A DNA stretch of 64,000 nucleotides from a virus (lineage: Duplodnaviria > Caudoviricetes), in the IMG/VR virus record IMGVR_UViG_3300037840_000041, positions 1,549 to 65,548 of that record. One strand, written 5' to 3'. Made by a program: the position numbers and the translations under genes. Position 1 is the stretch's first letter, and every line of letters starts with the position of its first letter. Under the pieces are notes generated by a model, which was not told the origin of the DNA, did no database searches, and worked only from the letters and a program-made list of their open reading frames with translations. Positions 1,365 through 26,086 of the stretch are shown piece after piece.

Positions 1365-2360
1365 TCAAGCCACAATCGAAGCGAAGTAGTAGCCGCAATC
1401 CACGCCGACAGCCTGCATGTCGAAGGCCATCTCGCACTCGTTGCGGATCGTCCCGATGCCCCGGAGAGGGACCGGGATTTGATAGGTCGCCACGCCGAGG
1501 TTATTGAGGCCTTCGGCCAGCCCCGACCACGCGAACGTGTAGCCGGCGGTCGGCACCATGATGCCGGGTGCCTTCGCGCGGTAGCAGAGCAGAGCACTCT
1601 TTCCCATCACGAAGTTCATCGTGGCGGCCTGGCCTTCGTTGGCGGAGTTATAGACCGCCTTCGAGACAAGGATCTCCTCGATATCGAACGCCTCGGCGAG
1701 CAGCTGCGGCGTGATCTTCCCCGCAAATGCCGGGTTGGTGTATTTGATGCGGTCGATCACCAGCGGATGCTTGCGCAATGCTTGGTAGACCGGCCACGCC
1801 ATCACCAGGATATTCGGCTCGAGCCCGGTGTTCTGCAGCACCGTGGTCTGCCCGAGCGCGATATCCGAGAACGGATCGCCGTTCGCATCATCAGACCATT
1901 GATAGGTCTGGTTTGCACCCGGTGCAGCGGCCACGCCGGTGACATCGGTGCCCCACAGTCCTGTCTTGAGGAAGGTGGAGACGAAGACCCGATCGCGACG
2001 GATCAACATCTTCTGCATCAGTTGGCGGGTCGACACCATGTCGAGATCGACAGCCGGGTCCGCGTTGGCGCGAATCTGACGGCCGATGTCCTGATGCAGT
2101 GCCCAGACCTTGGCGGAGTAGGACTGCGTCGTCAGGCCGACGCCGGTGCCGGCGGATTCCGTGGCGTCGGCGCGTAGCTGCGCCTCGTCGCGGAAGAAGT
2201 CAGCCTTCGACCATACGAAATACAGATCGGTCTGATGCTGGACGGGGACAAGCGGGAAGACCTTGTCCGCGATGTAACTCGACTCATCTTGCCAGTAGGC
2301 AACAGCGACATCCGTTAGCGCAGCGGCTACGTGGACGTCGCCAACATTGGGTTGCGGCAT
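1365..2360 (-). CDS. Major capsid protein (HK97 fold, capsid E-like family)
   Basis: 331 aa; 'LTDVAVAY..YIADKVFPLVPV' N-terminus and 'P+SDI...G..PN.LV....+.AL..HP.VI.RIKY' motifs; follows scaffold and cement genes. Confidence 0.9.
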   Translation of the reverse strand: MPQPNVGDVHVAAALTDVAVAYWQDESSYIADKVFPLVPVQHQTDLYFVWSKADFFRDEAQLRADATESAGTGVGLTTQSYSAKVWALHQDIGRQIRANADPAVDLDMVSTRQLMQKMLIRRDRVFVSTFLKTGLWGTDVTGVAAAPGANQTYQWSDDANGDPFSDIALGQTTVLQNTGLEPNILVMAWPVYQALRKHPLVIDRIKYTNPAFAGKITPQLLAEAFDIEEILVSKAVYNSANEGQAATMNFVMGKSALLCYRAKAPGIMVPTAGYTFAWSGLAEGLNNLGVATYQIPVPLRGIGTIRNECEMAFDMQAVGVDCGYYFASIVA

Positions 2361-2447: not shown

Positions 2448-2858
2448 TCAGGGCGCGATGATCGTCCCATTGAACACGCGAACGCTGGCGATGTCGCCCA
2501 ACGCGCCGGCCATCTTGGCCTTTGCGATGGCCAACTGGCCGGTGGTCGCGGTAACGAGCCTGGCCGACGAGTCGGTCGTCAGGTAGTCGCCAGCAGCAAC
2601 CGTGCCGCCATAGACGGCCTTGCACTCGCCTTCGAAACACACGTCGCAGGAATCGCCCGATACCGGCGCGTTCTGCAGGATGCCGTCCGAACGCGCGTTG
2701 GCGCCGGCGACGAGCAGGTAGGTGCGGTCGGCCGCGGTCGAGAATTTGACAGCGAGGAATTGCGCGCTGCCGTTCGGACCGGCGAGGCCGGCGGTCTTGG
2801 AGAAGTTTGCGCCGGCAATCGAATTGCCATCGCGTAGCATTACGCCTTCGGTCGACAT
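2448..2858 (-). CDS. Capsid cement/decoration protein (DUF2190-like)
   Basis: 136 aa with 'GILQNAP..G....V...G..K...GGTVAAGD.LTTD..AR.V.A' motif, directly upstream of the capsid gene. Confidence 0.8.
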   Translation of the reverse strand: MSTEGVMLRDGNSIAGANFSKTAGLAGPNGSAQFLAVKFSTAADRTYLLVAGANARSDGILQNAPVSGDSCDVCFEGECKAVYGGTVAAGDYLTTDSSARLVTATTGQLAIAKAKMAGALGDIASVRVFNGTIIAP

Positions 2859-2950: not shown

Positions 2951-4282
2951 TCAGGCGGCGACGGCGCCCATCTTCTGCAGGCGCTCGTGCCGGTTCTTGG
3001 CAACGAGCTCCGCATTCGCCGGGTCGGACATCACCTTGTTGACCGCCTGATGCATCGACAGCTTGGCGCCGGCTTCGGTCTTGCGCAGCTCCTCGGCCTT
3101 GGCGCGAATCTGCGCGTAGGCGTCGGTCGGGACCGTGGTGCTGGACGACCCGAACTCCTTGAACAAAGCGCCCGTGTCGACCTGCGTCCGCAGCGACTTT
3201 ATCAGCTGCTCGTGCTTGGCGATGGCCTCCTTGTCGCCGCCGTAGGCCTTGCGCATCACTTCCCCATGCTCCTCCGGCAACCCGAGATCAGTGGCGCGCT
3301 TGGCGAACGCCGCTACTTCGTCGCGCTTTTCGAACTCGGACAGCCGCTTCTTGAGATCGGCCGACTCCGTCTGCAGCGCCTTGACCACCGGGCTTTCACT
3401 GACCGCGGTCGGATCGAGTGCCTTTGCGGCTTTCTTCTTGCCCATCTCTTCATCGCGCTGCGCTGGCGTCATATCCGCGAACTTGTCCTTCGCGTCCTCG
3501 CTGTCGAGCGTGGCCATGTGCGCCTTGTGATCGTCCGACATCTTGAGCACACTGATCTCGCGGGCCATCTTGGCGACCTTCGTCAGAAGATCGGCCTTTT
3601 CCTTCTTCTCCTTGTCGTCGGCCTCTTTCCGCTTGCGCTCGGCCTCGGCCTTCTCGGCTTCAGTCATGGTCGAATCTCCTTTGACCGTGGGGATAGCCGC
3701 GGATGCGGCCAGGAAGTCGTCGCGCTTATCGGTCGGCACGAGGCCGGCGAGATGCTCGACGCATTGGGACAGGGACTTCTCGACGGCCGCCAACTGAGCA
3801 TCGCCGTCCAGATTCTTCTCGATGTTGCCGAGCGCGATGGCCATGGCCTTCGCGGCCGCTTTCACCTTCGCATCATCGGCGCCGAGTTCGCAGGCCTTCG
3901 CCATGATCGCCGCCAGCGCGTGGCTGGCGTCGTCGCGCTTCTCCCAGGTATTGGGGATCGCATCCTTCATGCCCATGGCCTCGGCGCGCGCCTTGATGTG
4001 GGCCTTGGCCTTCTCCGGATCCTTGGCGCGGCCGATCGCGCGAATGGCGTTGTGCAGATCGGACTCGTTGGCTATCGGATAACTTCCATCCGGCAATGCT
4101 GTACCTGCGTCGGCCATCTGCGATCGCTGCTTGTCGCTGAAGTTGCGCTTCCAGTACGGCTCAGGCTCAGTGCCAAGGTCGCGCTTCATCATCACGACGT
4201 TGACGCCGTGGCCAGCACCGCGATCGACCGACGACACTTCCTTGATCTTCAATCGCATGAGCAGATTTGGCATCAGCATCAC
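2951..4282 (-). CDS. Capsid scaffolding protein with N-terminal DUF6582-like domain
   Basis: 'EVSSVDRGA' start, 'ALPDGSYPI....DLHNAIRAIGRAKDP...KAHIKARA' domain, long charged coiled coil; upstream of cement and capsid genes. Confidence 0.75.
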   Translation of the reverse strand: MMLMPNLLMRLKIKEVSSVDRGAGHGVNVVMMKRDLGTEPEPYWKRNFSDKQRSQMADAGTALPDGSYPIANESDLHNAIRAIGRAKDPEKAKAHIKARAEAMGMKDAIPNTWEKRDDASHALAAIMAKACELGADDAKVKAAAKAMAIALGNIEKNLDGDAQLAAVEKSLSQCVEHLAGLVPTDKRDDFLAASAAIPTVKGDSTMTEAEKAEAERKRKEADDKEKKEKADLLTKVAKMAREISVLKMSDDHKAHMATLDSEDAKDKFADMTPAQRDEEMGKKKAAKALDPTAVSESPVVKALQTESADLKKRLSEFEKRDEVAAFAKRATDLGLPEEHGEVMRKAYGGDKEAIAKHEQLIKSLRTQVDTGALFKEFGSSSTTVPTDAYAQIRAKAEELRKTEAGAKLSMHQAVNKVMSDPANAELVAKNRHERLQKMGAVAA

Positions 4283-4533
4283 TCCACTGTTGCACGGCGC
4301 CGACGTTTCTCTTTCGCAGTGGCACGCAATCCCAAGCGACCGCTATCGGAGAACCGCCGGCACCATTCGTCGAATTCATCTTTTGTAAGCGAGTATCGTT
4401 CCAGCGCGCTCTCTAATGAGATCATGCCTCCGCGCACAGCTAGAACGATGTATTCTCTATGCCGCGAGCACCAATTCTTCAGGTCGCGCGGCGGCAGTGC
4501 GATAATGTTTCCGTGGCTATCCCTGACAGTCAC
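4279..4533 (-). CDS. sciP: SciP / DUF1153 family CtrA-inhibitor homologue
   Basis: LPP....W.......V.AVRGG..SL..A.ERY.LT.DEF..W......G..GLR.T matches the SciP pattern; start and stop overlap both neighbours. Confidence 0.85.
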   Translation of the reverse strand: MTVRDSHGNIIALPPRDLKNWCSRHREYIVLAVRGGMISLESALERYSLTKDEFDEWCRRFSDSGRLGLRATAKEKRRRRATVE

Positions 4534-5609
4534 GGAATCTCCATCGACATCGACTCGCCGCCGATCGAGAACTCGGGCAAGCGGCCGGCCTTGTGCTCAG
4601 CCCACACCGCAGCGTCATCGATCTTGTATCCAACCATCCACCCCGACACTTCCTGACCGTGCTGATTCTTGAGGCTGAGCGTGTAGCCGTGCTTCAGATA
4701 GGCCGCGCGCTTCTCGTCGGTGATCACGAAGGACTCAATCAGCCTGCCGGTGCCGGTGATCTTGTGCATGTGGCCATGATCGCGCGCCTCGAGCACGTAG
4801 TCGTAGACCGCATCTTCCAATTCCTCGGTTGGAATCACATCGTTTTGCTTGTCAATGATCAGCTTGCCGTCCGCTTCAGCAGTGGACGCCACACCGAATA
4901 TCATTTGGCGATCGGCATCCGCGGATTTGTTGAGCATCGTGACGGGCATCGTCCAGTCTTTCGCCAGCGTCTCATCTTCACCTGAGAGCTTGCAATATTT
5001 GCAGTCGATCGACGTTTCGCCGTCGAGTAATGATGCAGCCGCGCGATGATGACCATCCGCGATATAATTCTTGCCGTCGTTGCGAACCACAGTCGGCAGC
5101 TTCGAATAACCGTTGGCCTGCATGTCCGCGACCTTCTCTGGCGAGACGCGCGGCTGCATCGCGACCAGCGACTTGATCGGGACCTTCCGGGTCGGCAGAT
5201 CGTCGGGGTTGGTCAGTGCGGCGAAGAACTTGCGGGATTGCTCTGGCGGTATCTTGTCGAGCGCCTGGGCATCATATGGGAACGGCGTGTGCGCGCCGCC
5301 GTCCGGGTGCGGCTTCAATGCTGGCGCGCCGCTCTTGCCGATCTCGGTGAAAGCATTCGCGAGGTGAGCGTGTATATGCAGCGGAGCAGACGAAATTATC
5401 TCGTCGAATCCCTTGATCGTCGAGATCGGCTCTTCCTCAATCACCTCGGTAAATGTCAGCGGCTTGCGCTTGGGCTTCTTGTCGTTGCCGAGCGATGTGG
5501 CTACGTGCACATCGCCGACCGTGGCCATGTCCTTCGCCAGCGCCGAATTGAAATCCGGGTCGCGGTTCATCAGCGCCAGCGCTTCGGCGCTCAAAGTCAT
5601 CTGGTTCAT
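4530..5609 (-). CDS. Prohead protease (XkdF-like) fused to an internal ParB/Srx-like domain
   Basis: Start refined to ATG 5609 (ATGA overlap). 'SLVAMQPRV...LPTVVR.DGK.YIADGHHRAAA' is ParB-like; C-terminal 'IFGVAS..IDKQND.I..ELE.AVY.Y...MH...G.LIES..GW..G..I.D..VW...K.G....FSIGG' is XkdF-like. Confidence 0.8.
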   Translation of the reverse strand: MNQMTLSAEALALMNRDPDFNSALAKDMATVGDVHVATSLGNDKKPKRKPLTFTEVIEEEPISTIKGFDEIISSAPLHIHAHLANAFTEIGKSGAPALKPHPDGGAHTPFPYDAQALDKIPPEQSRKFFAALTNPDDLPTRKVPIKSLVAMQPRVSPEKVADMQANGYSKLPTVVRNDGKNYIADGHHRAAASLLDGETSIDCKYCKLSGEDETLAKDWTMPVTMLNKSADADRQMIFGVASTAEADGKLIIDKQNDVIPTEELEDAVYDYVLEARDHGHMHKITGTGRLIESFVITDEKRAAYLKHGYTLSLKNQHGQEVSGWMVGYKIDDAAVWAEHKAGRLPEFSIGGESMSMEIP

Positions 5610-5842
5610 GCTGCATGCCTCTTGCTGGCGTGCACGCGACGCGAACGGGATTTCGCGCGCATCGCTACGCGCGGAGAGAGACCGCTCTTCTTGCGATCCC
5701 ATCCGTGATGTTGCTTGCCTCGGCGAATGAATATCGGCGCGTCGATCTTTTGCTTTATCTGCAGCGGACCATGTTCTCCGAAGCTCAGCGCCGCCATCGC
5801 GGCAAATGCTGCTTTTGCCAGATAAGATTGCTTGTACATCAC
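5606..5842 (-). CDS. Small basic hypothetical protein
   Basis: Start and stop overlap MuF and protease genes. Confidence 0.55.
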   Translation of the reverse strand: MMYKQSYLAKAAFAAMAALSFGEHGPLQIKQKIDAPIFIRRGKQHHGWDRKKSGLSPRVAMRAKSRSRRVHASKRHAA

Positions 5843-6912
5843 GAATCCTCTTCTGCAGGAATGAGGTCGATATTTGTTTCGTAAGAAATCGTACAACGAC
5901 ACGCGGGATGAGTACCTGACGGCGGATCGTCAACTGGGCCGTCATCGGACTGGAAATCTTCACGGAGCCCAACTCCGTTAGGATTGTTTTCGACAATGGA
6001 GAGACAAAGTGGGCAGACCCTTTCGTCCATCGCGATTTGCCAGAAGCGGGTCACCGCTTCAGCCGGCATCACACCACGATCAACCGCTTGCGTGTAGCCC
6101 TCTCGCAGCCCGGTGTTGCCGGCGCGCAATGATTCAGTGCGCGCGATCGTGTTGGCGCGGTAGTCGAGATAATTCTCCAGATACGCATCGACTGCCTTGT
6201 CCATGAATTCATCGGACAGGAAGTCGCCGCTGTCGATCGCGTCCTGTATGTCGGCATCGAGCGTCGTATCGCGAAGTGCCCTTTGCAGCGCATTCGAATC
6301 AAGCGACTCGAGGTCGCGGCGATAGTTGGCAACGGCCTGCGCCTGGTTGGGTGTCAGCGCGATCGTATCGCGGATGTTCTTGGCGATATCGTCAAAGCTG
6401 TCGCCTGCCCGAACTCCGTCCAGCACCACCGATGAGATCGTGGCCTTGGCCTGATCCGACAGATCGGTGATCAACCCATCGAGAATTTCGTGCAACCGCT
6501 TTTGCGTCTCCGGGTCGAAGCGGTCGAAGTTGAAACCGACATCGGTTGAGCCGGCGACATCCTTGCGGAATCCTGGCGGGCGATATCGCAGGCTCCGTCC
6601 CCTCAGTCTTGACCTGATCTCGCCCGCGCCATGCTCAGCTGCCTGCAGATGGAGATCGCCAAGATGGCCGATCGGCTCCTTGAGCACTTCTTTCCAATGA
6701 GCGAACGGGATGGCGTCAAATACCGCGCCCGCCTTCCCGCCCCTTTTCAGCTTTTCCGCGATCTCCTTTACCGGGACGATCAAGCCGAGATGCTTCAGCG
6801 CCAAATGAAACGACGCCTTGATCTTTTTCTCCTCACGCTCGGCAAGTGCTCTGATCGGATCGTCTTTGGCCTGCCAGCGCTCGACCGGCGTCAGCGCGCG
6901 GAGGCGCGCCAT
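5839..6912 (-). CDS. Phage minor head / MuF-like head morphogenesis protein
   Basis: Start refined to ATG 6912; 'RANTIARTE...W.IAMDERVCPLC...HPACRCT' MuF signature. Confidence 0.88.
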   Translation of the reverse strand: MARLRALTPVERWQAKDDPIRALAEREEKKIKASFHLALKHLGLIVPVKEIAEKLKRGGKAGAVFDAIPFAHWKEVLKEPIGHLGDLHLQAAEHGAGEIRSRLRGRSLRYRPPGFRKDVAGSTDVGFNFDRFDPETQKRLHEILDGLITDLSDQAKATISSVVLDGVRAGDSFDDIAKNIRDTIALTPNQAQAVANYRRDLESLDSNALQRALRDTTLDADIQDAIDSGDFLSDEFMDKAVDAYLENYLDYRANTIARTESLRAGNTGLREGYTQAVDRGVMPAEAVTRFWQIAMDERVCPLCLSIVENNPNGVGLREDFQSDDGPVDDPPSGTHPACRCTISYETNIDLIPAEEDS

Positions 6913-7031
6913 TTCAAGAGCCGCCCAAGCTAGCGAATACCGGCATGTCGCTGATGTACCAACGGAGGGCCCACGCCGAGGCGCTGCTGAACAGAAAAAA
7001 CAGCGCCACAGCAGCAATCCTTTCCTGCATC

Positions 7032-7374: not shown

Positions 7375-7701
7375 TCAGTAGAACGCTCCCGGCCGGGCGA
7401 TCTCCGGCTCGTCATTGTTGTTCACATCGACGCAGCGCCCACCGCGAATATAGCCATGCCAGCATCCGCCGCAGTTGATCGAGGGCGCGAACGATGGTGC
7501 GGCCCGGTTATGATCCCAATCCCATTGAGCAACGCCGCCGTTCTTTCCTCGCGGGTCCCGCTTCAGGTTGGTCTTGCCGGCGATCACGATGCCTTCGCAA
7601 CGTCGATTGTGCTTCGGACAGTTGAAGCTGAAGGTCTGCTCAGCGCCGGCCGCCGCCGGATCGCCTTCGATTGTTGCAAAGCGAACCTTCGCATCACTCA
7701 T
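7375..7701 (-). CDS. DUF6527-like zinc-binding protein
   Basis: 'F.CP...C....W.WD.N...PSF.PSI.C..CWHGYIR.G' pattern; ATGA overlap with portal. Confidence 0.7.
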   Translation of the reverse strand: MSDAKVRFATIEGDPAAAGAEQTFSFNCPKHNRRCEGIVIAGKTNLKRDPRGKNGGVAQWDWDHNRAAPSFAPSINCGGCWHGYIRGGRCVDVNNNDEPEIARPGAFY

Positions 7702-9389
7702 GGCCGTACCCGCCGGCGCTTCTTGCCATAGCTCGTCGCCGAGCCACCCATGTGCATGATCCGCCGCGCGATCGACGCGGCAATGCGCTTCTGAAGATCG
7801 GTCGTCGGCGCCGTCTTATTCTCGTTGGTCGCCGGGAATTCCGGAGTTGCGACCTGGCCGATAGATTCGGCTTCAGCCGCAGCTCGGCTGGCGTCCATCA
7901 CCAAACCGAAGTCATCGTCTTCAGAGATGTCGGGCATGCCGGCGGCGTCCGAAAGATATTCCTGCAGCGTCTCGTTCGGGAACAGCGGCATCCCCGCTTG
8001 GCTGAGCCGCAAGATGAAGTTGGACAGCACGTCGAGATCTTGCCGCTGCGGCATGTCCGGGTGAATCGTCGGGTTGCCCTCCGGGTCCAGGCCGTTCAAA
8101 TCGGACAGCCGAGGGATGCCGTATCGATTCATCACGTCGGCATTCGAATTGAGAAAGCCCTCCATCGCCTGAAAGAACATGTCGACCTTGGACGTCGCCA
8201 AAGATTGCGTGCCGCGGCTTTGGTGGCCCAGCTGAATGAAGTCAGCCAAGACGCTCGACATCATGTTGATGTTGTAGCGGGTGATCGCCTTGTCGGAGTC
8301 GACGGCCTGTCCGCGACCGCCCTTCGGCACTGTCAACTCAAACCGATATTGTGCAGCGCCCCCGCCGGCTGATCCTGACGAGCCTTCCCAAATATCGGAC
8401 GGCAACAGCAAGCCCATCTGTTCGTCGATGCGCACGTTGGTGACGATGTTCTTCCACGTCTGGACCTGCATCGCCGCGTTGGCGTCGGCGCCGGACGCGG
8501 CGCGGTCCATCAGTTCTTTCGGCAAGTAGACCGTGGGGATGCCGCCCATGCGCTCGAACAGGATGGCCTCAAGTTCTTCCATCCTATTTGCGAGATAATA
8601 GCTGCGATAAGCACCTCTGAGAATTGATTTTCCTTCCGGTGAATTCTTGTGCGAACTGGGCCGGAACAATAGCATTTTTTCTATCGGCAGATCGATGATC
8701 GGCCCGGTCCAAGGCTGTTGCGTCATCCCCTGAATTTCGCCGTTCGGCCCAAAGAACCACTTCAGGATCGTCTCTTGCCCGCGCAATGGAAGGCGGCGCC
8801 AACGGATCAGCCCGTCGTCGAACTGGCTCCTTGGTAATTCCATTCCAGTCTGCTGGTCAACGCCAGGCTGACGACCGAGTGATCTCTTGTAGACGATCTC
8901 ATGCGGTGCATAGCCATAGCTCAGCATCGACAATTGTTCGGTGACGAAGTCTGACCAGGTGTGGCTGCAATCGTCCATGCAGCCCTCGATAAATTCCGCC
9001 TGATAAGCGCCCTTCGGCGAATCGTCCGCAGGCTCGACGCGCCAATCTACCTTGCGCATCGCCGAATTGATTGCGAACAAGATCGCGCTGATCGTCGCAT
9101 TATTGTCCTGCATCTCCCGATAGACGCGCGCCGATTGGCGGCCCATCAGCTGCGGCAGGAATTCCTCTCGCACCCAGCCCGAGAACTGGCGAAGGCCCGA
9201 GCTGCCGATATCCTTGAACAACATTCCGTTGTTGAACGTCGGCGCCACACCGAATCCGCCGCCATAGTTCGGGTTGGCGACGGACCGCGCCGTCGACATC
9301 GGCGGCTGCGGGAATATTTGCGACGGCGACCGCACCATCGGCACGCCAGCTTTTTCAAAGCTGGTTTCGATCGTCATCCGGTAGCTCAT
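7698..9389 (-). CDS. Portal protein (DUF935-like)
   Basis: 563 aa after TerL; 'IGSSGL..F.G.V.EEFL..L.G......Y.EM', 'MLSYGY..HEIVYK', 'NSPEG.SILR.AY'. Confidence 0.9.
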   Translation of the reverse strand: MSYRMTIETSFEKAGVPMVRSPSQIFPQPPMSTARSVANPNYGGGFGVAPTFNNGMLFKDIGSSGLRQFSGWVREEFLPQLMGRQSARVYREMQDNNATISAILFAINSAMRKVDWRVEPADDSPKGAYQAEFIEGCMDDCSHTWSDFVTEQLSMLSYGYAPHEIVYKRSLGRQPGVDQQTGMELPRSQFDDGLIRWRRLPLRGQETILKWFFGPNGEIQGMTQQPWTGPIIDLPIEKMLLFRPSSHKNSPEGKSILRGAYRSYYLANRMEELEAILFERMGGIPTVYLPKELMDRAASGADANAAMQVQTWKNIVTNVRIDEQMGLLLPSDIWEGSSGSAGGGAAQYRFELTVPKGGRGQAVDSDKAITRYNINMMSSVLADFIQLGHQSRGTQSLATSKVDMFFQAMEGFLNSNADVMNRYGIPRLSDLNGLDPEGNPTIHPDMPQRQDLDVLSNFILRLSQAGMPLFPNETLQEYLSDAAGMPDISEDDDFGLVMDASRAAAEAESIGQVATPEFPATNENKTAPTTDLQKRIAASIARRIMHMGGSATSYGKKRRRVRP

Positions 9390-10969
9390 CCGACCACTCC
9401 CGGCAGGTTAGACGGATGACTGCTGACGATCGCCCCGGAAAGAACCGCCTCGGTGCCAGACCTGCCGAATGCATAGATCGTCCCGTCGCCCTTATCGGGC
9501 GAGCGGTGGATGCGCTTTTTCATATCTTCTTTTTCTTCGGCCGCGATCCCCGATGACTTCAGGCTGTACCGATAGGCGCACAAATCAGCCTTGAGCTCCG
9601 GATCGGGCGGCAACGCGACATCCTCGCCGCTGTTCGGATCAAGAGCCTCGCGCAATCCCCAAATCCACTCCGAGCGCTTGTTGTGGAAGCGCAGCTTCGT
9701 GTTCTTCGCCAACTTGAAGCTCTTGTTGCTGCCGTTCATCGGCCGCACTACGAAGCCCAGCAGCACGCCCATGTCGACCGGTGACGACCCGATGCCGATC
9801 GAATCGATGTGCAGCGGCGCCGACTCACCCGGCTCCATTGCTGAGATCACGTCGCGGATCGTCGCCAGGCCGTCCGGCGTCAGCTTGCCAGGCCTCGTCA
9901 GGATCGGCGCCACCCAATTCGAGTAACGCTTGACGATCGTGCTCTTGTCTTTTCCCCCTCGAGCGGGGTCGACGCCGATCTGCGTCAGCGGTCCGCGCGA
10001 TTGCTTGTCGAGTGGTTTCCAGCGTGCCTGCGCTGCGATGATCCACGCCGAGGGGATCATCTGCCAAGGATGGTCGATCTGCGACAGTCCGAACTTGCCT
10101 TTCAGCATCAGCGAGCGCAGCGGCTCCGGCAACGCCTGCAGCGTCTTCTTATAGCCCGTGGCCATATAGACCGGGTTATCCTCGACAAACGACGGAATGA
10201 ATGTCCGCGACCGCGGCTCGATCAACTCCTGTTCTTCGCCGTCTTTCGGAATCGCCGGCCACCAGAACGGCAATCCGTTCTTTACCTCACGCTCGACGCC
10301 GTCGAGCATCGCGAACCACCGCAGTTCGCCTGGCTTGGCTCTCGCGCGCGGATAGGACTCATCCAACCACGGCCCGAAATATCGATTGACCCAGTCTCCC
10401 TCGGCATCGGTCGGCGGGTTGAACCCGGTGACGACCCGGCAGCGCTGGCCTTCGCGCGACGTTCTGTTCCAGGCTTTCAGCGTCCTGAATTGTAGTTCGC
10501 TAAAATGAGGTAGTTCGTCAAAAGCCTTAAGATCATGCGGCTGACCTTGGTACTTTTTGACATCGTCTTCTGTCTCAACACCGCCAAATTGAATGACCCG
10601 TCCATCGTCCATCCGCCAGCGGTGCTTCGTCGAATTGAACTTGCCGTGCCCGGTGAACAATTCGCGCGCACGGTCTTCGATACCTTCCAACTGTGCTAGT
10701 TCGCGGCGGAAGATGATCGACTTGTGGTGCGCGGTGTGAGCGAGCCCGAGTTCTAAATCGGTTTTCCCGCCGCCAGCCGCTCCACCGAATCCGAGATCGT
10801 CAGCCTCGCTGTTATAGCCCGCTTCTTGCGGGCTCCCCTCGAACGGCTCCCATGGCACGTCTGCTCTCAATAGGGCGTCAAGCTCAGCACGCTCTCGCGG
10901 CGATAGATATTCGACAAGCTCTATGGTCTGTCGGCCACTCCAATCGCCAGATTGCTCAAGCTCACTCAA
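9386..10969 (-). CDS. terL: Terminase large subunit
   Basis: Walker A GGAAGGGKT, Walker B AFDE, nuclease motifs IGVDPARGG.D and RSPDKGD. Confidence 0.95.
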   Translation of the reverse strand: MSELEQSGDWSGRQTIELVEYLSPRERAELDALLRADVPWEPFEGSPQEAGYNSEADDLGFGGAAGGGKTDLELGLAHTAHHKSIIFRRELAQLEGIEDRARELFTGHGKFNSTKHRWRMDDGRVIQFGGVETEDDVKKYQGQPHDLKAFDELPHFSELQFRTLKAWNRTSREGQRCRVVTGFNPPTDAEGDWVNRYFGPWLDESYPRARAKPGELRWFAMLDGVEREVKNGLPFWWPAIPKDGEEQELIEPRSRTFIPSFVEDNPVYMATGYKKTLQALPEPLRSLMLKGKFGLSQIDHPWQMIPSAWIIAAQARWKPLDKQSRGPLTQIGVDPARGGKDKSTIVKRYSNWVAPILTRPGKLTPDGLATIRDVISAMEPGESAPLHIDSIGIGSSPVDMGVLLGFVVRPMNGSNKSFKLAKNTKLRFHNKRSEWIWGLREALDPNSGEDVALPPDPELKADLCAYRYSLKSSGIAAEEKEDMKKRIHRSPDKGDGTIYAFGRSGTEAVLSGAIVSSHPSNLPGVVG

Positions 10970-11520
10970 TTGAGTTTTCTGTTTTCGATTGCTGGCTTCG
11001 GCGGGATGGTAACTGCCTTTTTCTTTTTCGACTCGGCGGTCTTCAGCAGCGCGACGATTCTGGACGTTCGTTCCGCTTGCGTGAGCCCGACAGTATTGAA
11101 CTCGTTTCCATCATCAGGGCGCCGATCCTCTAAATCCAGACTGACACGTTCCTGAAGACCGAGTCTCGTCTTCAGGAAGAAAATCAGCATCGCGACGTTC
11201 GGTAGCACTTCGGCTTTAGCAAGTTGACCGGCCATCGTTAGATGGCTTTTCGGGTAGTATTCGGCCGGTCCGCCGAGCGCCACGCGCGCCGCAGTCTGCC
11301 CAAGCATCGCCTGGAATTTTGCGTCCCCGATCTGAAGCTCGGCCGTGTAGTGCTTGCGTAGCGTCATTTTCGACCCGAGGCCGATCAGCGCTGCAATTGA
11401 TTTTTGCGGGACGCCATACGAGGACAGCGACTCGACGCGCGCGCGGCTTTCAGCCGTCGGGATATGAGGATCGCCACGGCGATCGATGTCGTCGTCCGGC
11501 GTTTCCGTTTCATTAACCAT
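10966..11520 (-). CDS. terS: Terminase small subunit
   Basis: Start refined to ATG 11520; HTH 'GVPQKSIAALIG....TLRKHY..EL..G' and 'AMLIFFLKTR.G..E'; overlaps TerL start. Confidence 0.8.
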   Translation of the reverse strand: MVNETETPDDDIDRRGDPHIPTAESRARVESLSSYGVPQKSIAALIGLGSKMTLRKHYTAELQIGDAKFQAMLGQTAARVALGGPAEYYPKSHLTMAGQLAKAEVLPNVAMLIFFLKTRLGLQERVSLDLEDRRPDDGNEFNTVGLTQAERTSRIVALLKTAESKKKKAVTIPPKPAIENRKLN

Positions 11521-11821: not shown

Positions 11822-12400
11822 TCACAGATTGTGATCGATGCCGCTCTTGGCGAGCGCCTTCTTGACGATGGCGCGCGCTTCGGCTGCGCGCGCTGCAGGC
11901 ACCGTCAGAAATATCGTGGTCTTGCTCTTGGGCGCTTGCGGCTCATTCGAAGTGGCTGGCGCTGTCGTCACAAAATCCGATATCGAGAAGCCGGTCAGAT
12001 CAAGATTGTAGTCGAGCTTCTTCAGCTCGCCCAATTCAAGCGCCAGTAGATCGTCGTCCCACTCTGACAGTTCGCTCGATCTGTTGTCCGAAATTACGAT
12101 GGCGCGCTTCTGCGCATCCGTGAGCCCGCGCAACACAACAACAGGCAACTCCGCAAAGCCCAACTCGCATGCTGCCAGCGTGGCTCCGTGGCCCGCCAGG
12201 ATCGTGTCGAACTCGTCGATCAATAGCGGCTTGGTAAAACCGAACTCGCCGATCATCGCCACGAGCGCGCGAATCTGTTCCTCAGAGTGAACCTTGGGAT
12301 TTTGCGGATACGGCTTTAGGTCTGTGACCTTGCGTCTTTCAGTCTTATCGGCCGGGAACGCCAACCGCGCTGCAGGCGCCGCGACTTGAGATTGTGCCAT
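11822..12400 (-). CDS. ParB/Srx N-terminal domain protein (stand-alone)
   Basis: 'LKPYP.NP+.HS.EQI......EFGFT.PLLIDE...ILAGHG...AA..LG...PV......QKRA..I.DNR..E...WD'. Confidence 0.85.
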   Translation of the reverse strand: MAQSQVAAPAARLAFPADKTERRKVTDLKPYPQNPKVHSEEQIRALVAMIGEFGFTKPLLIDEFDTILAGHGATLAACELGFAELPVVVLRGLTDAQKRAIVISDNRSSELSEWDDDLLALELGELKKLDYNLDLTGFSISDFVTTAPATSNEPQAPKSKTTIFLTVPAARAAEARAIVKKALAKSGIDHNL

Positions 12401-17392: not shown

Positions 17393-18043
17393 CTATTTGG
17401 CGCGATGCGCGGGGAACGCCGGTGCTGGCCCGGGCCTACCGCGCTCATGCGCCGGATCGCTTCCGATGCCCGTCAGCGGCCTCGCCCGCAGCTCCCGGCA
17501 GCATTCGCGCATGATCTCCTGGCCGCACAGCAGCCGCGCCAGTACCGCGCGCACCTTGCTGCCTGGCCACACCTCCAACAACTGCGGTTGGATCAGCCCG
17601 AGCCGCCGCGCTATCGCGCGCGCCTCGCCATCCCAAAGCCGCTCGATCAACCGCGAGCAGCACAGTTCGTCGCGATCGGGTTCCTGATCAATCCGCTTAT
17701 TGATGATGGTGCCATCGGGGAACACCACCAGCAGATTGCTATGGTAGATCACCGCCGGATGATCACGCCACTTAGGATGCACGGCCAACCACACCTCGGG
17801 CAGGTAGAAATTATATTCGCGCATCTGAAGATCCAGCCGGCCATCGCCGATGCTGTCGCGCGGCCCCTTGATCTCGATGCCGACAATGTCGCTCGCATAG
17901 ACGAACGCCAGATCGACGCGGCGGTTGCCCAGCGCGAGCTCGTGGATGACCCGGACGTCGGTGCCGCGGCGCTCCGCCATCCAGGCAATCAGCGCCACGC
18001 GCATCGCCTGCTCGGCCTTACCCGTGTTGCGACGGTCAGTCAT
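17393..18043 (-). CDS. PD-(D/E)xK nuclease-fold protein (sce7726/MmcB-like)
   Basis: 'HEL.LG.RRVDLA......I.GIEIKG.RD....RL..Q...Y' motif. Confidence 0.7.
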   Translation of the reverse strand: MTDRRNTGKAEQAMRVALIAWMAERRGTDVRVIHELALGNRRVDLAFVYASDIVGIEIKGPRDSIGDGRLDLQMREYNFYLPEVWLAVHPKWRDHPAVIYHSNLLVVFPDGTIINKRIDQEPDRDELCCSRLIERLWDGEARAIARRLGLIQPQLLEVWPGSKVRAVLARLLCGQEIMRECCRELRARPLTGIGSDPAHERGRPGPAPAFPAHRAK

Positions 18044-18960
18044 GGCTTGAACGTCACCGCGATATGCCGACTCAGCGGCAGCGGGATTTTCGCGATCATG
18101 GCGCTGGCAAATTTTCGGCCCGGAGATCCGCTTCGAAAGCGGCGCATGAGGGATGGATTATCGGGGCCAAACCAAGTGCCACCACACTTCAACCCGTCCG
18201 CAGCAGTTGCCGTGAAACCACGTTGCCACATCGGGTCTCTACCATCTGGATTCCGACCCTTCCCGCTCGTGGTGTTGTGGGCAATCTTGAACCATGATCC
18301 GCCGTTGTTCTTGATCGCCTGCTTGCCTGCAGCACACGTAAAATCCTGACCGCGTTTCGTCCGATCGCTCCAATTCAGGCCGGGAGCTTTCACTCCGGTA
18401 TGCGCCACAGCGGCCGATTGAAAAGATTTGCCGCTGCCGTCAAAACGGAATGAGGGCACCTTCGGCATCGCCGGCATCGCCGGCATCGCCGGAACGTCGC
18501 CCCACAGATAAAAACTCCCAAAGGATGCCCGGGCACGTCCGACAAACTTCTGCGCACCGCGCACGTTCTCAACAATGAGCGGAATATGCCGTCCGGCCGC
18601 TTCGCAGGCTTCGCGCTGGATTCGGAAGCACGCGTCGAACAGCTCATTGCTCGGCGGCGGCAGGGCCTTCGCCTTTTTCCATGGCATCGCGCGGTAGCTG
18701 TACTCTTGGCACGGAGGCGAAGCGACGATCAACGCGGCGTGCCGGAATTGCGAGCCGTGCAGCGTCCGAACATCTTGGAGGATCAACTCGCCAGGATACC
18801 GATGCTCTCCATATTCGTGCCGCTCAATGTCGTAGCCGATCACGCGCCAACCTTCGCCGAGCAAGCCTTCGGCCCAACCGCCGAGTCCGCAAAATAAATC
18901 TACGGCGAGCGGGCGATCATCAACCGCCAACAGAAGATCAATAGCAGTCGGCGTTCTCAC
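18040..18960 (-). CDS. C5-cytosine DNA methyltransferase (atypical variable region)
   Basis: Start refined to GTG 18960; motif I DLFCGLGG, motif IV ASPPCQ, motif VI ENV. Confidence 0.85.
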   Translation of the reverse strand: MRTPTAIDLLLAVDDRPLAVDLFCGLGGWAEGLLGEGWRVIGYDIERHEYGEHRYPGELILQDVRTLHGSQFRHAALIVASPPCQEYSYRAMPWKKAKALPPPSNELFDACFRIQREACEAAGRHIPLIVENVRGAQKFVGRARASFGSFYLWGDVPAMPAMPAMPKVPSFRFDGSGKSFQSAAVAHTGVKAPGLNWSDRTKRGQDFTCAAGKQAIKNNGGSWFKIAHNTTSGKGRNPDGRDPMWQRGFTATAADGLKCGGTWFGPDNPSLMRRFRSGSPGRKFASAMIAKIPLPLSRHIAVTFKP

Positions 18961-19403
18961 CGTTGCGCCCCGCGCTCCGTGTGAAACAAGATCACCAGCT
19001 TCGCATTGTGCTCGTCGCCGGATAGGCCGTACAGCACAAGCGCCAGCAAGAACGGGTCGATGCCGAACCATCGCCAGAACGCGAGCTCGTTCATCGAATG
19101 CTGGATGTCGTGATGGCCTCGACAAAGAGGCAACAACCAATGATCGTCCGCAGTCTCGCCGCCACCTAGTTCGCGCTTGCCGTGCAGTTCGCTCGCCGCG
19201 CGGATGTGCGCGGGATCGACCACGCCAAAGAGGAACGGCTTGCGGTCGCCGTTGCGCGCGCCAGGGATAGGTATCGATCGTGCCGGCGAGACACAGCACA
19301 CGCACGGCAGGCGCTTGATGAAGCTCTTGTGGCTTTCGCGGCGCTCGCGCGGCCGGCGGAACGGCTGCAGCTGGAAACCGCCCTCGGGGACAATGCGCGC
19401 CAT
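18957..19403 (-). CDS. DUF968-like / HNH-type zinc nuclease
   Basis: 'LPCVCC...DPAHIR...DD.W.LPLCR.HH..QH' motif. Confidence 0.75.
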   Translation of the reverse strand: MARIVPEGGFQLQPFRRPRERRESHKSFIKRLPCVCCVSPARSIPIPGARNGDRKPFLFGVVDPAHIRAASELHGKRELGGGETADDHWLLPLCRGHHDIQHSMNELAFWRWFGIDPFLLALVLYGLSGDEHNAKLVILFHTERGAQR

Positions 19404-19601
19404 CTACATCTGCCTCCGCTTGATAGTTTCGGCGGATGCGGTGTCAGCGGCTTCCAGTTCGGCAAAAATCTTAATCGCCTGCTCTAGATCGGCGAATGTG
19501 TCGTCGAAAAACAGACGCAAAGCCAAGCTCTGAGCGCTCTCGCCTTCTGGCCATTCCTCCATCATGATTCTGGCCATCTCGGCCGCGCGTTGGGTTGCCA
19601 T
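19404..19601 (-). CDS. Small hypothetical protein, 65 aa
   Basis: ATG 19601 overlapping the Dam-like gene stop. Confidence 0.55.
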   Translation of the reverse strand: MATQRAAEMARIMMEEWPEGESAQSLALRLFFDDTFADLEQAIKIFAELEAADTASAETIKRRQM

Positions 19602-20401
19602 CAGATCGCCATCCTGTATTGCCCGCGCGCGGTGCGCTCGCCGACGCGCTGCAGGATCTTCCGGACCTGCTCGCGCGCAAACTTGCGCCCTTGCGCCTTG
19701 TGATGAAATCGAACTGCCTCCCACACGGCGGCCACCGCCACCGGGCCTTCGGCCTCGGTCAGCACGCCAACGATAAGCTCGCACCATGTGACATCCCGGA
19801 ACGCGGCACCGAGAACGCTGCGGTTCCAGATCAACGGAATGAACTGGCCGGCGATACCGCTGGCCCGAAGGATGTCCGCGTTGTCGTCCCCATAGGCGAT
19901 CAGCGCGGTCGGCCCGCCGGCATTGCCCGGCGCACGGTCGCCCGCCAAGAACGTCTTGCCGCAGGCAGGCCGACCGTTGACCCACTTCAGCTCCGAATAG
20001 CCCTCGCCGATGTGGAAGTGGATGCGGCCGAACATCAGCAGCACCGCGTGCGCGCGTTGCCAGATGGAGCGAACCCACGCCGCGGTCTCTGTGCGCGCGA
20101 AGATCAGCCACGTCCCGTTGCCATGATCAGCCGCGCGCGAAAGCCATGGCTCGATCTCGCCGGTGCCATAGGGCGGATTGCCGAAGACGCGCCATTCCGG
20201 CGGCCACTCTTTCGACAGGCCATCGTCGAGAATTGTATAGGTTCGGAGCGCAGTTGGGTAAGGCTGTTCAATCGGTGCACAAGGATCGAGCCCGTAAGAT
20301 TGCCAGCCGCCTGTCCGCTCGATCGTATCGGGCGGCGTCAACCATTCGACAGTGCGTGACGCTTGGGATTGATGCCCACCGATGCCCTTAGAGTTCGCCA
20401 T
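19601..20401 (-). CDS. Phage N6-adenine DNA methyltransferase (phage Dam-like)
   Basis: 'EWLTPP', 'LDPCA', 'DGL...W..RVFGNPPYG', 'LIFARTET' motifs. Confidence 0.85.
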   Translation of the reverse strand: MANSKGIGGHQSQASRTVEWLTPPDTIERTGGWQSYGLDPCAPIEQPYPTALRTYTILDDGLSKEWPPEWRVFGNPPYGTGEIEPWLSRAADHGNGTWLIFARTETAAWVRSIWQRAHAVLLMFGRIHFHIGEGYSELKWVNGRPACGKTFLAGDRAPGNAGGPTALIAYGDDNADILRASGIAGQFIPLIWNRSVLGAAFRDVTWCELIVGVLTEAEGPVAVAAVWEAVRFHHKAQGRKFAREQVRKILQRVGERTARGQYRMAI

Positions 20402-20780
20402 GGGCCATCCTGTCGCAAAAGTCGTAAAGCGTTTCTATCTGGTCGAACCAGACGACGTCTTCGCCGCCGACCGTGCCGTTCACGGTCCCCTTCATTATTT
20501 CCTCGTAGCCCGCTCGAAGCTTTGCATTTTCTGGAATCAGCTGGCTGACGCGCCGCGCGAGCGCGCAATCGACGCGCCTGATGCGTTCCTCGTCCGGTTT
20601 CTTAAGAGCGGCGAGTTCAGCCTGCAGATCGCTGTGGCGTTTCATGCATCTGGCTAGCGCGTCAGAATATCCTTTGAGTTCGTAGGCTATCCTCGGATGG
20701 CACCACAAGAAAATCCTCACGACTGTAGTCCGGATGATGCCATAGCCGAGAAACCGCGGATCGAGGCGCTCGCCGATCAT
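20388..20780 (-). CDS. Hypothetical protein
   Basis: Overlaps both neighbours. Confidence 0.55.
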   Translation of the reverse strand: MIGERLDPRFLGYGIIRTTVVRIFLWCHPRIAYELKGYSDALARCMKRHSDLQAELAALKKPDEERIRRVDCALARRVSQLIPENAKLRAGYEEIMKGTVNGTVGGEDVVWFDQIETLYDFCDRMAHGEL

Positions 20781-21745
20781 GTTGGAGCCCTTCCATCGCG
20801 CTTGAGGCCTTCAACAATCACTTTAACGGCCTCCTTCCTTTGTCGGTAGAAGGTCTGCCGCTGGACTCCTAATTGCACACACTTTTTCGATATCGGGACG
20901 CCCCACGCGCGCCACATCGATCCAAGGTTCACAAACATCGGAAGATCGGTCGGCAAGCCACTGAGATATCTCGCTGACCACGCCAGCGCATCCTCCATGC
21001 GCCGAACTTCCTCAGTTGATGGTGGGCCTTCTGATCGAATGAGCCGTCCGATGGCCTTGCGCAGCGATCGGTTGCCCGCCTGGGCGACCAGATCGGACAT
21101 CTCGCGGACGATCGCCGGCATGGCGTTGCCGAACTGCCGCGGCCCGCGGTGGCGATCGGCTGTGCGGAACAGCGTCCGGAAGGCCTCGTCCATCCGGGCT
21201 TCGACCAGCTGCTCGGTCCATTCCGGCCCGCGTACCGATGCCCGGGCCACACGGGCCCGCTCAGCGGCCTTGCGTCGGCTGACGGACAGATCATCATCTG
21301 TCCGGACAATCGCCCTTGTGGCGAACGCTGAGGGCGCACTGGCGGCCTCGGCAATCTGTTCGGCGGTCAGTTCGGGGACTTCCTCGGGCAACGGCGCCAG
21401 CACATCGTCCGGATCGATATCGGCGCGCCGGCCCGTCGCCGCATCAAGCGGCCACTGGCGTTCCTTGAGCCGTTCCTCGATCCGCCGCTTCTGCCGACCA
21501 GCACGCTTTTGCGGCGGCAGATGTGTATCGGTCGTCAGCCAGGCGGTTGCCTTCTGGTCGGGCGCAGGCTTGGGCGGCGGCAACTTCCGGCTGGCGAGCT
21601 TGCGCGCGCGGGCGGCTTCACGTAGCGCCTTGGCCTCGGCCTTTCGGCGACGACGATCTTCCCGCGCGTTTTTCAGTTCGCGCTTGGCATCTTCCGTTGG
21701 TGGTGTCCGTTCGACCATTTCCATTTCCGCATCGCTCCCTATCAT
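20777..21745 (-). CDS. DUF6362-like putative late transcription regulator with C-terminal HTH
   Basis: 'WT...VEAR..EAFRTL', 'PPS..EV.RME.AL.W', C-terminal 'LGVQRQTFYRQR..A'. Confidence 0.6.
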   Translation of the reverse strand: MIGSDAEMEMVERTPPTEDAKRELKNAREDRRRRKAEAKALREAARARKLASRKLPPPKPAPDQKATAWLTTDTHLPPQKRAGRQKRRIEERLKERQWPLDAATGRRADIDPDDVLAPLPEEVPELTAEQIAEAASAPSAFATRAIVRTDDDLSVSRRKAAERARVARASVRGPEWTEQLVEARMDEAFRTLFRTADRHRGPRQFGNAMPAIVREMSDLVAQAGNRSLRKAIGRLIRSEGPPSTEEVRRMEDALAWSARYLSGLPTDLPMFVNLGSMWRAWGVPISKKCVQLGVQRQTFYRQRKEAVKVIVEGLKRDGRAPT

Positions 21746-22443
21746 AGGTCCAAATTTTCCTGGCGCATCGGCCTCGGCGCTTCGATGAACAAATCCGGCC
21801 GCGCCAGCGCGTCGGCGATGCGGCGGCAGGCGACCTCAAAATACTTCGGCACGATCTCGATGCCGATGAACTTGCGGCCTAGTTTGACGGCGGCAACGCC
21901 CGTGGTGCCGGAGCCCATGAAGGGGTCGAGGATCAGAGTCGCAGTGGGGGGTAGGAGCTTTATACACCATCGCATCAAGTCGACCGGCTTTTGAGTCGGA
22001 CACCAGCGCTCTTTGCCGCCGCCTTTCTCACTCGCTTTGCAGATGCCTTTCCACAAATGCGAGAAGATGCGATCTTTACCGCGCCCTTTTTGCCAAGCGA
22101 ACTCGACATCGGAGAAACTATCGAACGCTTCCATCCCGGCTAACTTATCCCACGCGAGCCAACAGCCGTGAGGCAAGCGCGACGCATAATGATTGCCTCC
22201 CCACAAGATGACCTCTTCAAAGTCCAAAAATGGCGCGGGATCGAAGGGCTCGGTGTCACCCTCGATTGCTTCAATATTCCTAACGTGGTGTTTGCCCTTG
22301 CCGCCTGATCCTTTGCTGTAGCCAATCCCATATGGCGGATCAGTCACCACGGCATCGACCTTGCCAAGATCAGGCAATATCTCCCGGCAATCTCCGAGGT
22401 AAAGCGTAACGCCTTCGGCGAGATGTTCGACGCGCGGGTTCAT
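21742..22443 (-). CDS. Amino (N6A/N4C) DNA methyltransferase, beta class
   Basis: Motif IV TDPPYG before motif I LDPFMGSGTTG; PTQKP motif. Confidence 0.92.
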   Translation of the reverse strand: MNPRVEHLAEGVTLYLGDCREILPDLGKVDAVVTDPPYGIGYSKGSGGKGKHHVRNIEAIEGDTEPFDPAPFLDFEEVILWGGNHYASRLPHGCWLAWDKLAGMEAFDSFSDVEFAWQKGRGKDRIFSHLWKGICKASEKGGGKERWCPTQKPVDLMRWCIKLLPPTATLILDPFMGSGTTGVAAVKLGRKFIGIEIVPKYFEVACRRIADALARPDLFIEAPRPMRQENLDL

Positions 22444-24971: not shown

Positions 24972-26086
24972 GCACCTTTGCGAGAGCGTGGCCGCTCGAT
25001 TCTATTCTTGGCGATGGCCACATATTTCGCGCTCAATTCTATCAACGTGGATTTTCGACCGGTTGCGGCTGCGACGACTCCCACGGTGCACGAGCCGCCG
25101 AACGGATCGAGAACCCTGCCGCCTTCTGGACACCCAGCCTTGATGCACTTGGCCACAAGCGCTTCCGGGAACGTAGCAAAGTGAGCGGCCCTGTATGCTT
25201 GCGTCGGTATCGACCACACGTTGCGGCTATTGCGCGTCTTCAATAAATGACCGCTGATAGCTTCGTGAAACGAAGCGTTCGCCCGGATGCCGCTGCGCGG
25301 CTTCGCTGATTTTGGCGATACACCGGGCGCCAACTTTCTGGCTACTGGCACGCGGTCAATCAACATTCGGCTGTTTCGCCCAACCGACGACCTTGGATGG
25401 GTGTTCGGACTTACAGGCTCGGCAATCGCGCGCGCGTTATAAAAATATCGCTCGCATTTTGTGAGCAGCCAAACCTTCTCGTGCGCAACGGCTGGCCGAT
25501 CCATGATTGATTCCGGCATCGCGTTGGGTTTGTGCCAGATGATCTCGCTGCGAATCCACCAGCCATCATCCTGCAGGGCGATAGCCAGTCGGTTTGAAAT
25601 CATGCACAGGTCTTTTGGTTTCAGATAATCGCCAGCGACCACACGACCGCCGCTGTCAATACGGCACTGCCGATCGGCAGCAACAAACTTCCCGCGCGGC
25701 GTACTGTGCATCGGCTCATAGATCGGGCCGACGGTTGAAAACGGCTTGTCTCGGAACGTTCGGTCATCATTTCCCTTGGCCTTCGTGTCCTGCGCGCTTC
25801 GGCCGTTCGGCGCAGCAGCGTAGCAATCACCGTAGTTGAGCCATAGCGTCCCCTCGGGCTTGAGAACACGTCTAACCTCGCGCAGAACTTCCACGAGCGC
25901 TGCGATATGATCGAACAGCGTGCGCTCCGATCCCATTTGCCCGCGGATGCCGTAGTCCCTCAGCCCCCAATATGGTGGCGATGTGACGCAGCAATCGAAG
26001 GAGTTGTCGTCCATACATCGCAACGCGTCTAAGGCGTCCCCTGTTATTATCTCGACCGCGCCACCGCGTAAAAGAATGCGCTTCAC
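24968..26086 (-). CDS. Amino (probably N4C) DNA methyltransferase, beta class
   Basis: Start refined to GTG 26086; TSPPYWGLRDY, IIWHKPN.MPES..DR, HFATFP, LDPFGGS. Confidence 0.9.
   Translation of the reverse strand: MKRILLRGGAVEIITGDALDALRCMDDNSFDCCVTSPPYWGLRDYGIRGQMGSERTLFDHIAALVEVLREVRRVLKPEGTLWLNYGDCYAAAPNGRSAQDTKAKGNDDRTFRDKPFSTVGPIYEPMHSTPRGKFVAADRQCRIDSGGRVVAGDYLKPKDLCMISNRLAIALQDDGWWIRSEIIWHKPNAMPESIMDRPAVAHEKVWLLTKCERYFYNARAIAEPVSPNTHPRSSVGRNSRMLIDRVPVARKLAPGVSPKSAKPRSGIRANASFHEAISGHLLKTRNSRNVWSIPTQAYRAAHFATFPEALVAKCIKAGCPEGGRVLDPFGGSCTVGVVAAATGRKSTLIELSAKYVAIAKNRIERPRSRKGA

Follow-up and report, generated by a model that had tools for sequence, protein, structure and literature searches.

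The stretch of DNA analysed here, referred to as the window, is 64,000 nucleotides long and comprises bases 1549-65548 of the 65,548-bp IMG/VR virus record IMGVR_UViG_3300037840_000041 (Duplodnaviria; Caudoviricetes). The record carries direct terminal repeats, is judged 100% complete and represents the genome of a complete 65.5-kb siphophage. The gene under study is an 84-amino-acid open reading frame (ORF) on the minus strand of the window, the only DUF1153 gene in the whole virus record. It lies in the head operon, whose genes follow one another on the minus strand in the order large terminase, portal, Mu F-like protein, protease, DUF1153 gene, scaffold-like protein, phrog_673 protein and major capsid protein (Table 1). 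An earlier reading made by a model from the sequence alone, hereafter the sequence-only reading, had described this ORF as a phage-encoded SciP, an inhibitor of the alphaproteobacterial regulator CtrA, expressed with the head genes. The ORF is present as described, including its GTG start, and, as the record is a complete virus genome, it is indeed carried by a phage.

Profile searches place the 84-aa protein in the DUF1153 family. The Pfam model PF06627 (DUF1153) matches it with 62.3 bits (E 5e-17) against a gathering score of 23.5, which is the outcome that the sequence-only reading had anticipated from such a search. Because residues 12-76 align with profile positions 21-85 of 87, the match spans most of the protein, at a score far above chance, and a profile search of the whole genome scored the same gene at 61.8 bits. 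In an NCBIfam scan at E <= 1, the sole listed match is the SciP model NF051866, with 68.2 bits (E 5.2e-19), and a PHROGs search of the protein returned no match. The closest ESM Atlas clusters are DUF1153/SciP without exception. A sequence search of the PDB gives the DUF1153 nuclear magnetic resonance structures 2jrt (E 1.5e-8) and 2oa4 (E 7.5e-8) as closest, and the family fold is also predicted by AlphaFold2 (110 sequences, mean pLDDT 75.4), with strands at residues 2-4 and 10-12 and helices at 23-34, 40-46 and 51-70, that is, an N-terminal beta-hairpin followed by three helices. Foldseek with this model ranks 2jrt first (TM 0.64, E 4.3e-3) and 2oa4 next (TM 0.56, E 1.9e-2), each with a probability of 1.00, and returned no match at E <= 0.001. 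The third helix is acidic (DEFDEW, from the sequence). The model is of low confidence from about residue 71, with pLDDT below 50 at 81-84; this is the region of the Arg-rich C-terminal tail, KEKRRRRATVE, which had been correctly pointed out before. The protein is thus a member of the DUF1153 family but no SciP equivalog. The name phage-encoded SciP holds for the family, as seen from PF06627, the fold and the ESM Atlas, but not for equivalog status, for which NF051866 demands 100 bits and the protein reaches 68.2. We also considered the helix-turn-helix (HTH) protein OrfA of IS3/IS481-type transposases as an identity for the ORF and rejected it, as the SciP model is the only one listed by NCBIfam at E <= 1 and the neighbouring genes encode a protease and a scaffold-like protein.

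The main feature that sets the phage protein apart from its family is a focal change at the start of helix 1. In a profile search (HMMER) against 1.84 billion representatives, 1592 sequences score at E <= 0.001; 21 of these reach 1e-10 and none 1e-30, and the best identity is 54%. Conservation was counted over the best 150 of these 1592 hits, to which the counts out of 150 given below refer, and a column was called strongly conserved where one residue occurs in at least 120 sequences. Among these 150 relatives, 109 reach the 100-bit SciP cut-off and 41 fall below it. The phage protein agrees with 20 of the 26 strongly conserved columns and differs at six, all of which lie within residues 18-29. 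This segment holds only 8 of the 26 columns, giving a hypergeometric probability of 1.2e-4 for a segment chosen post hoc, and outside it 18 of 18 conserved columns are retained. L18 stands where 120 of the 150 relatives have T, E27 where 134 have A, and I29 where 127 have V; the other three deviations, N20, H25 and R26, are weighed further below. Residues 20-26 read NWCSRHR in place of the family's RWVIRRK, with W21 and R24 retained, so that the R-W-[VI]-x-R-R-K-A signature by which SciP is recognized at the start of helix 1 is absent. Both this replacement and the oddity of this part of the protein had been flagged by the sequence-only reading, and the column counts bear it out on both points. 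At the C-terminus, the family motif R-x-Q-x-Y-R is exchanged for KEKRRRR. Because the six deviations all cluster, and neither the fold nor the remaining conserved positions are disturbed, the pattern points to the remodelling of one basic surface at the start of helix 1, as in a change of contacts rather than decay.

The position of the gene suggests how it came to be there. Related loci were found in IMG/VR with the major capsid protein (27 loci, 59-82% identity), and the DUF1153 gene occurs in none of the 27, either by tblastn or by HMM (all open frames of at least 40 aa, E <= 10); as a positive control, the same HMM scores the DUF1153 frame of the window at 2e-32. The family is likewise missing from the whole records of 20 of these viruses, two of them complete genomes (0/20). 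Homologues of the scaffold-like protein occupy the matching place in related phages, and protease and scaffold are both visible in 17 of the 27 loci. The spacing between the two is 3 nt in L002, 16 nt in L003 and 174 nt in both L007 and L022, and inserts of about 0.3 to 2.4 kb separate the two genes in further relatives. In the window, the 3' insert edge, GTGGAGTGATGCTGATGCCAAAT, is similar to the uninterrupted junction of L002, GGGGAGTGATCGATGCCTAAT, and the insertion is exact, with the ribosome-binding site and start of the scaffold gene preserved. The G+C content at third codon positions (GC3) of the DUF1153 gene is 0.588, versus 0.69-0.83 in 11 comparison genes read in frame. Because the spacings and inserts of the relatives differ, the gene is absent from the 27 loci and its GC3 is atypical, the protease-scaffold junction is a variable slot and the DUF1153 gene a lineage-specific acquisition of a single gene, that is, cargo. 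Small PadR-family regulators are found at the same junction in two relatives, at L005:6343-6657 (+) with 32.5 bits and at L006:6851-7150 (+) with 28.4 bits (cut-off 27), and this junction seems to accommodate small regulators. An HNH-like ORF, below cut-off, is also present at the L005 junction.

The landing site would also provide for expression of the gene. Its GTG (4533-4531) overlaps the TGA of the protease (4532-4530) as GTGA, an overlap recognized from the start, and a GGAG ribosome-binding site precedes the GTG by 5 nt. At the other end, its stop codon TGA (4281-4279) shares bases with a GTG or ATG at which the next ORF could begin. The claim that it overlaps the start of the scaffold gene is true of this possible codon; however, homology puts the scaffold start more probably at ATG 4273 (the relatives begin MPN, MPR or MPD), 5 nt past the DUF1153 stop, with the scaffold GGAG within the last codons of the DUF1153 gene. 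Between positions 1 and 13000 none of 13 terminator-like sites is on the minus strand, all 13 being on the plus strand, and promoter-like sites number 3 versus 3.2 expected, none of them adjoining the DUF1153 gene. Because of the GGAG, the stop/start overlap and the lack of a minus-strand terminator-like site in the head operon, late co-expression with the head proteins is the simplest expectation, in keeping with the placement as a late gene first proposed. Ahead of the GTG, 21 further codons of the DUF1153 frame are free of stops. A protease-DUF1153 fusion through frameshifting was considered and rejected, no slippery heptamer being seen in the last protease codons. In a soil metatranscriptome (run X3), contigs identical to the operon cover 2518-2668, 2752-2936 and 3427-3679, within the genes for the scaffold and for the phrog_673 head protein; they suggest that the phage was active in a sampled soil, with DNA carry-over being possible. 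No contig of this run covers 4279-4533, a gap in cover that proves nothing. The whole stretch is contained in two soil DNA runs, possibly its own source.

Table 1. Features of the head operon and of the DUF1153 gene (coordinates of the window)
Feature	Coordinates	Strand	Basis
DUF1153 / SciP-family ORF, 84 aa, GTG start, TGA stop	4279..4533	-	ORF list and Pfam/NCBIfam profiles
Remodelled basic segment, start of helix 1, codons for residues 18-29 (LKNWCSRHREYI)	4456..4491	-	all six of the deviations from 26 conserved columns
GGAG ribosome-binding site, 5 nt upstream of the DUF1153 GTG	4539..4542	-	from sequence; inside the protease 3' end
Major capsid protein	1365..2360	-	phrog_1005, E 5.7e-83
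Head protein, phrog_673 (PHROGs label: head scaffolding protein)	2448..2858	-	PHROGs match
Scaffold-like protein	2951..4273	-	PHROGs; ATG 4273 start (MPNLL...) inferred from relatives
Prohead protease, XkdF-type, Peptidase_S78_2	4530..5609	-	Pfam/PHROGs; ATG 5609 start inferred by homology
Mu F-like head morphogenesis protein	5839..7017	-	Pfam and PHROGs
Portal protein	7698..9389	-	Pfam and PHROGs
Large terminase subunit	9386..10969	-	Pfam and PHROGs

Searches for the origin of the gene and for the host of the phage lead to distant sequences. A word-based search of 5.8 billion proteins found no close relative of the phage protein, and single-protein scans of IMG/VR with the phage protein and with its relatives P0038 and P0069 gave no usable loci. 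Host SciPs were surveyed in a sample of 401 genomes that belong to the same class as a Sinorhizobium genome (the tally takes in G265). A match to the phage protein at E <= 1e-5 is present in 165 of the 401, at an identity of at most about 50%; most of these genomes have one match, and about ten, among the rows listed, have two. Because identity peaks at about 50% in these 165 genomes and at 52% in a Methyloceanibacter genome, the phage protein is roughly equally far from all host SciPs. A tree built from 151 domain sequences (88 columns) stays unresolved and assigns the phage protein to no supported clade, so that no donor can be named. The major capsid protein is at most 43.5% identical to those of isolated phages of Pseudomonas, Rhizobium, Roseobacter and others, and a search of it against genome_contigs gave no relative.

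In three of the relatives, a DUF1153 domain is fused to a CtrA-like DNA-binding domain of the OmpR type, and a receiver domain is lacking: P0069 (183 aa) and P0140 (210 aa), in which the DUF1153 domain comes first, and P0022 (205 aa), in which it comes last. P0069 and the phage protein share 46% identity along almost the full length of the latter, N-terminal hairpin included. All three fusion proteins come from metagenome or genome contigs only; the P0140 cluster is found on four short contigs, a cluster look-up of ten divergent relatives led to short metagenome contigs only, and P0022 might be a gene-call artefact of neighbouring ctrA and sciP genes. Because all three fuse the two domains, they provide a hint that divergent DUF1153 domains, too, may work with CtrA-type DNA-binding domains. 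The phage itself has no CtrA-like DNA-binding domain (PF00486, 0 matches at E <= 1).

CtrA controls division, DNA replication, flagella and pili in Alphaproteobacteria, and flagella and pili are phage receptors. According to PMC4083442 and PMC6169604, SciP binds CtrA directly and blocks the recruitment of RNA polymerase, leaving DNA binding by CtrA undisturbed; a rival view, also set out in PMC4083442, is that SciP binds DNA directly. The CtrA-activated genes of late S phase that SciP represses include flagellar, pilus-secretion and chemotaxis genes (PMC4083442). Against this background the reading that we tentatively favour, with a probability of roughly 0.38, is that the phage protein derives from SciP, is expressed late and, with its contacts altered, modulates CtrA/SciP-dependent transcription. 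A single phage lineage would have gained the gene horizontally, as cargo, into the variable slot between protease and scaffold. Having neither promoter nor terminator of its own, the gene would be translated along with the late head proteins by means of its own GGAG and translational coupling. Its product would have kept the family fold and the strongly conserved residues outside 18-29, with the basic patch of helix 1 remodelled (N20, H25, R26 and E27), and might act late in infection on the transcription that host CtrA and SciP control, either as a SciP-like inhibitor with changed contacts or as a competitor of host SciP. The CtrA-dependent genes affected could be those for flagella, pili, chemotaxis and division. 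A complex prediction for the phage protein (alignment A4) with CTRA_CAUVC, run with no controls, gave 0.00 and 0.01 (mark 0.32) and speaks neither for nor against such a contact.

Several observations weigh against this reading. The protein does not reach the equivalog cut-off of the SciP model, and of the best 150 of the 1592 relatives just two, P0069 (61.9 bits) and P0140 (67.6 bits), have a lower score than the phage protein. The three remaining deviations fall on some of the least variable residues of the family, N20 replacing an R found in 144 of the 150 relatives (N in none), H25 an R found in 129 and R26 a K found in all 150. Two conserved arginines of Caulobacter SciP, five residues apart, are presumably required for CtrA binding. 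In the canonical alignment, the invariant arginines five apart are the R before W and the second R of RRK, to which N20 and H25 correspond in the phage protein; if both this requirement and this mapping of residues hold, canonical CtrA binding would be impaired. Host SciP is, in addition, usually a single chromosomal copy expressed from a CtrA-dependent promoter, and the phage gene lies in a virus operon with no perfect CtrA box. Perfect boxes number 0 in the window versus 0.10 expected, so that there is none upstream of the DUF1153 gene, and boxes with one mismatch number 2 versus 3.94 expected, which is no enrichment. Because perfect boxes are absent and one-mismatch boxes are not in excess, the phage does not look CtrA-regulated, unlike the phages described in PMC9437464. 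A late gene would, moreover, have scant time to change the cell surface before lysis. As a singleton with a long end branch in the tree (1.05 versus a median of 0.39), the gene does not allow purifying selection to be measured. Finally, a close prophage relative is absent from the 401 alphaproteobacterial genomes, where the capsid protein has matches in only two, at 40% and 34%. As a separate observation, there are two TTAACCAT half-sites, at 11513-11520 and 30089-30096 (+), where 0.43 would be expected, and 7 of 100 shuffles yield as many; one half-site lies within the ORF upstream of the large terminase, and both are probably due to chance.

The absence of perfect CtrA boxes from the genome also suits a different account, in which CtrA plays no part: the protein would be an HTH protein that binds DNA or has some other regulatory role, and its remodelled basic patch would serve a new target, such as a phage promoter or another host factor. 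The PadR-family regulators at the junctions of L005 and L006, the confinement of the changes to one basic surface and the published alternative that SciP binds DNA directly (PMC4083442) all agree with this account. However, no target site is known, and the acidic third helix would be unusual for a recognition helix. Moreover, because all 18 conserved columns outside residues 18-29 are retained, the protein is suggested to share a partner with the rest of its family. We regard a CtrA-independent regulator as possible but doubtful. The gene could instead be a neutral or decaying passenger, a newly captured fragment that is translated owing to its landing site and has no selected function. Its singleton status, with no copy in the 27 related loci and 20 related records, its atypical GC3, its long terminal branch and the loss of near-invariant residues would all be expected of such a passenger, and another virus-borne copy, L032, looks degenerate, with part of the domain missing. 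Yet the reading frame is unbroken, a GGAG of its own precedes it, the confidence of the fold prediction is fair, and 20 of 26 conserved columns are kept, the six changes being clustered (1.2e-4) in a way unlike the scatter of decay. The exactness of the insertion, which spares the ribosome-binding site and start of the scaffold gene, also speaks against it, and we consider a passenger unlikely.

Two further explanations deserve much less weight. The protein might be a decoy for a handler of host SciP other than CtrA, for instance the protease Lon, and so stabilise SciP or other Lon substrates. Lon does make SciP short-lived according to bioRxiv 10.1101/739516, and most of the family surface is kept, the basic patch excepted; however, this idea is pure inference, as no sequence feature points to Lon, and we find it very improbable. 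It is equally hard to credit, and perhaps slightly more so, that a SciP-like protein with an Arg-rich disordered tail is made alongside the head proteins in order to enter the capsid with the DNA and be injected into the next host, where it would rewire CtrA-dependent transcription from the onset of infection, with the junction as a slot for mimics of host regulators, SciP-like in this phage and PadR-like in two relatives. The late-expressed modulator of CtrA/SciP-dependent transcription with altered contacts is thus the reading that we retain, in its tentative form. If the protein does act on CtrA, it would represent a new phage route to the takeover of the alphaproteobacterial cell cycle and a natural SciP variant whose changes mark a functional surface. 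Because these changes are focal, they would offer a ready-made mutant series for the dispute over whether SciP works via CtrA or via DNA.

Elsewhere the genome carries genes for a siphovirus tail, GTA-like tail genes among them, together with genes for a primase/helicase, RecE/RecT-like proteins and several DNA methyltransferases. Among the ORFs scanned (58 with PHROGs and 40 with Pfam, for the most part the same ORFs, with small ORFs partly covered), neither an integrase nor a CI-type repressor was found. Around the primase/helicase gene, at 18040-26104 (-), four or more genes resemble those of DNA methyltransferases (phrog_363, phrog_111 and two of phrog_67), and a ParB-like gene is located at 11822-12400. 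In the head operon, the protease frame stays open to 5996, 129 codons beyond ATG 5609, and overlaps the Mu F-like gene; upstream of its Peptidase_S78_2 domain, the protease gives weak matches of ParB-like and VapB-like type, every one of them under its cut-off. An IS1595-family transposase gene at 47000-47923 (-), with a DDE_Tnp_IS1595 match of 151.6 bits and a zinc ribbon, adjoins a PAPS-reductase-like gene (45941-46879) and looks like a resident insertion sequence in the phage genome.

Virus-borne members of the family appear to be rare. A tblastn search of the phage protein in 50,697 phage records gave no match, and the same search with canonical SciP and with the divergent P0038 gave a match in one of the 50,697, Erythrobacter phage XM05 (PV416404). 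The XM05 match (L029, 4001-4225), which reads ...MRYTARIKAEIV..., extends over two hypothetical coding sequences, XM05_98 and XM05_97, and the LPP and W motifs are both missing from it. A scan of IMG/VR for the canonical motif gave three loci, namely a likely host flank, a provirus gene beside an S24 repressor and a truncated-looking copy. In the IMG/VR provirus L031, a DUF1153 domain with RWVARRK (107 bits) closes a long open frame (L031:5008-6255 (+)). An S24/HTH CI-like repressor gene lies about 1 kb upstream, the surroundings being an early or immunity region. With the record of the window itself left out, one contig fits a broader DNA pattern that covers the DUF1153 gene as well. Because motif scans miss divergent copies, these counts are lower bounds. 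In the literature searched, no SciP-family protein was found to be described as encoded by a phage.

Compared with SciP of Caulobacter crescentus and its alphaproteobacterial orthologues, the phage protein belongs to the same family, is predicted to share the fold and has roughly the same length. Identity with host SciPs is 40-52%, and the phage protein keeps LPP, W21, R24, AVRGG, RY, EF, W57 and GLR. However, it lacks about ten N-terminal residues, reads NWCSRHRE where host SciP has RWVIRRKA, bears an Arg-rich tail in place of the C-terminal R-x-Q-x-Y-R and, unlike host SciP, is encoded in a phage head operon in a position suited to late expression. The other virus-borne copies are not close to it; the DUF1153-like gene of XM05 lies among small early-type genes and that of L031 by a CI-like repressor, neither of them in a head operon, and L031 keeps the canonical RWVARRK, whereas the phage protein does not. 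The gene resembles phage morons, in the wide sense of the term, in its presence in a single lineage, its atypical composition and its place between conserved structural genes. Classical morons, in contrast, bring their own promoter and terminator, and the DUF1153 gene has neither and would rely on the late operon. In lytic deferment, as outlined in PMC9437464, alphaproteobacterial phage genomes have CtrA-binding sites and are under host CtrA control, which likewise ties phage biology to the CtrA circuit; here, by contrast, the phage carries a SciP-like protein and has neither a perfect CtrA box nor an excess of one-mismatch boxes. By analogy, the closest precedent is the GcrA homologues of phiCbK-like Caulobacter phages, which have been proposed to alter the replicative state of the host (PMC3556154). 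In both cases a phage encodes a homologue of a host cell-cycle regulator. However, GcrA belongs to another family and, in the same source, occurs in five of six related phages, whereas the DUF1153 gene is a singleton among its relatives.

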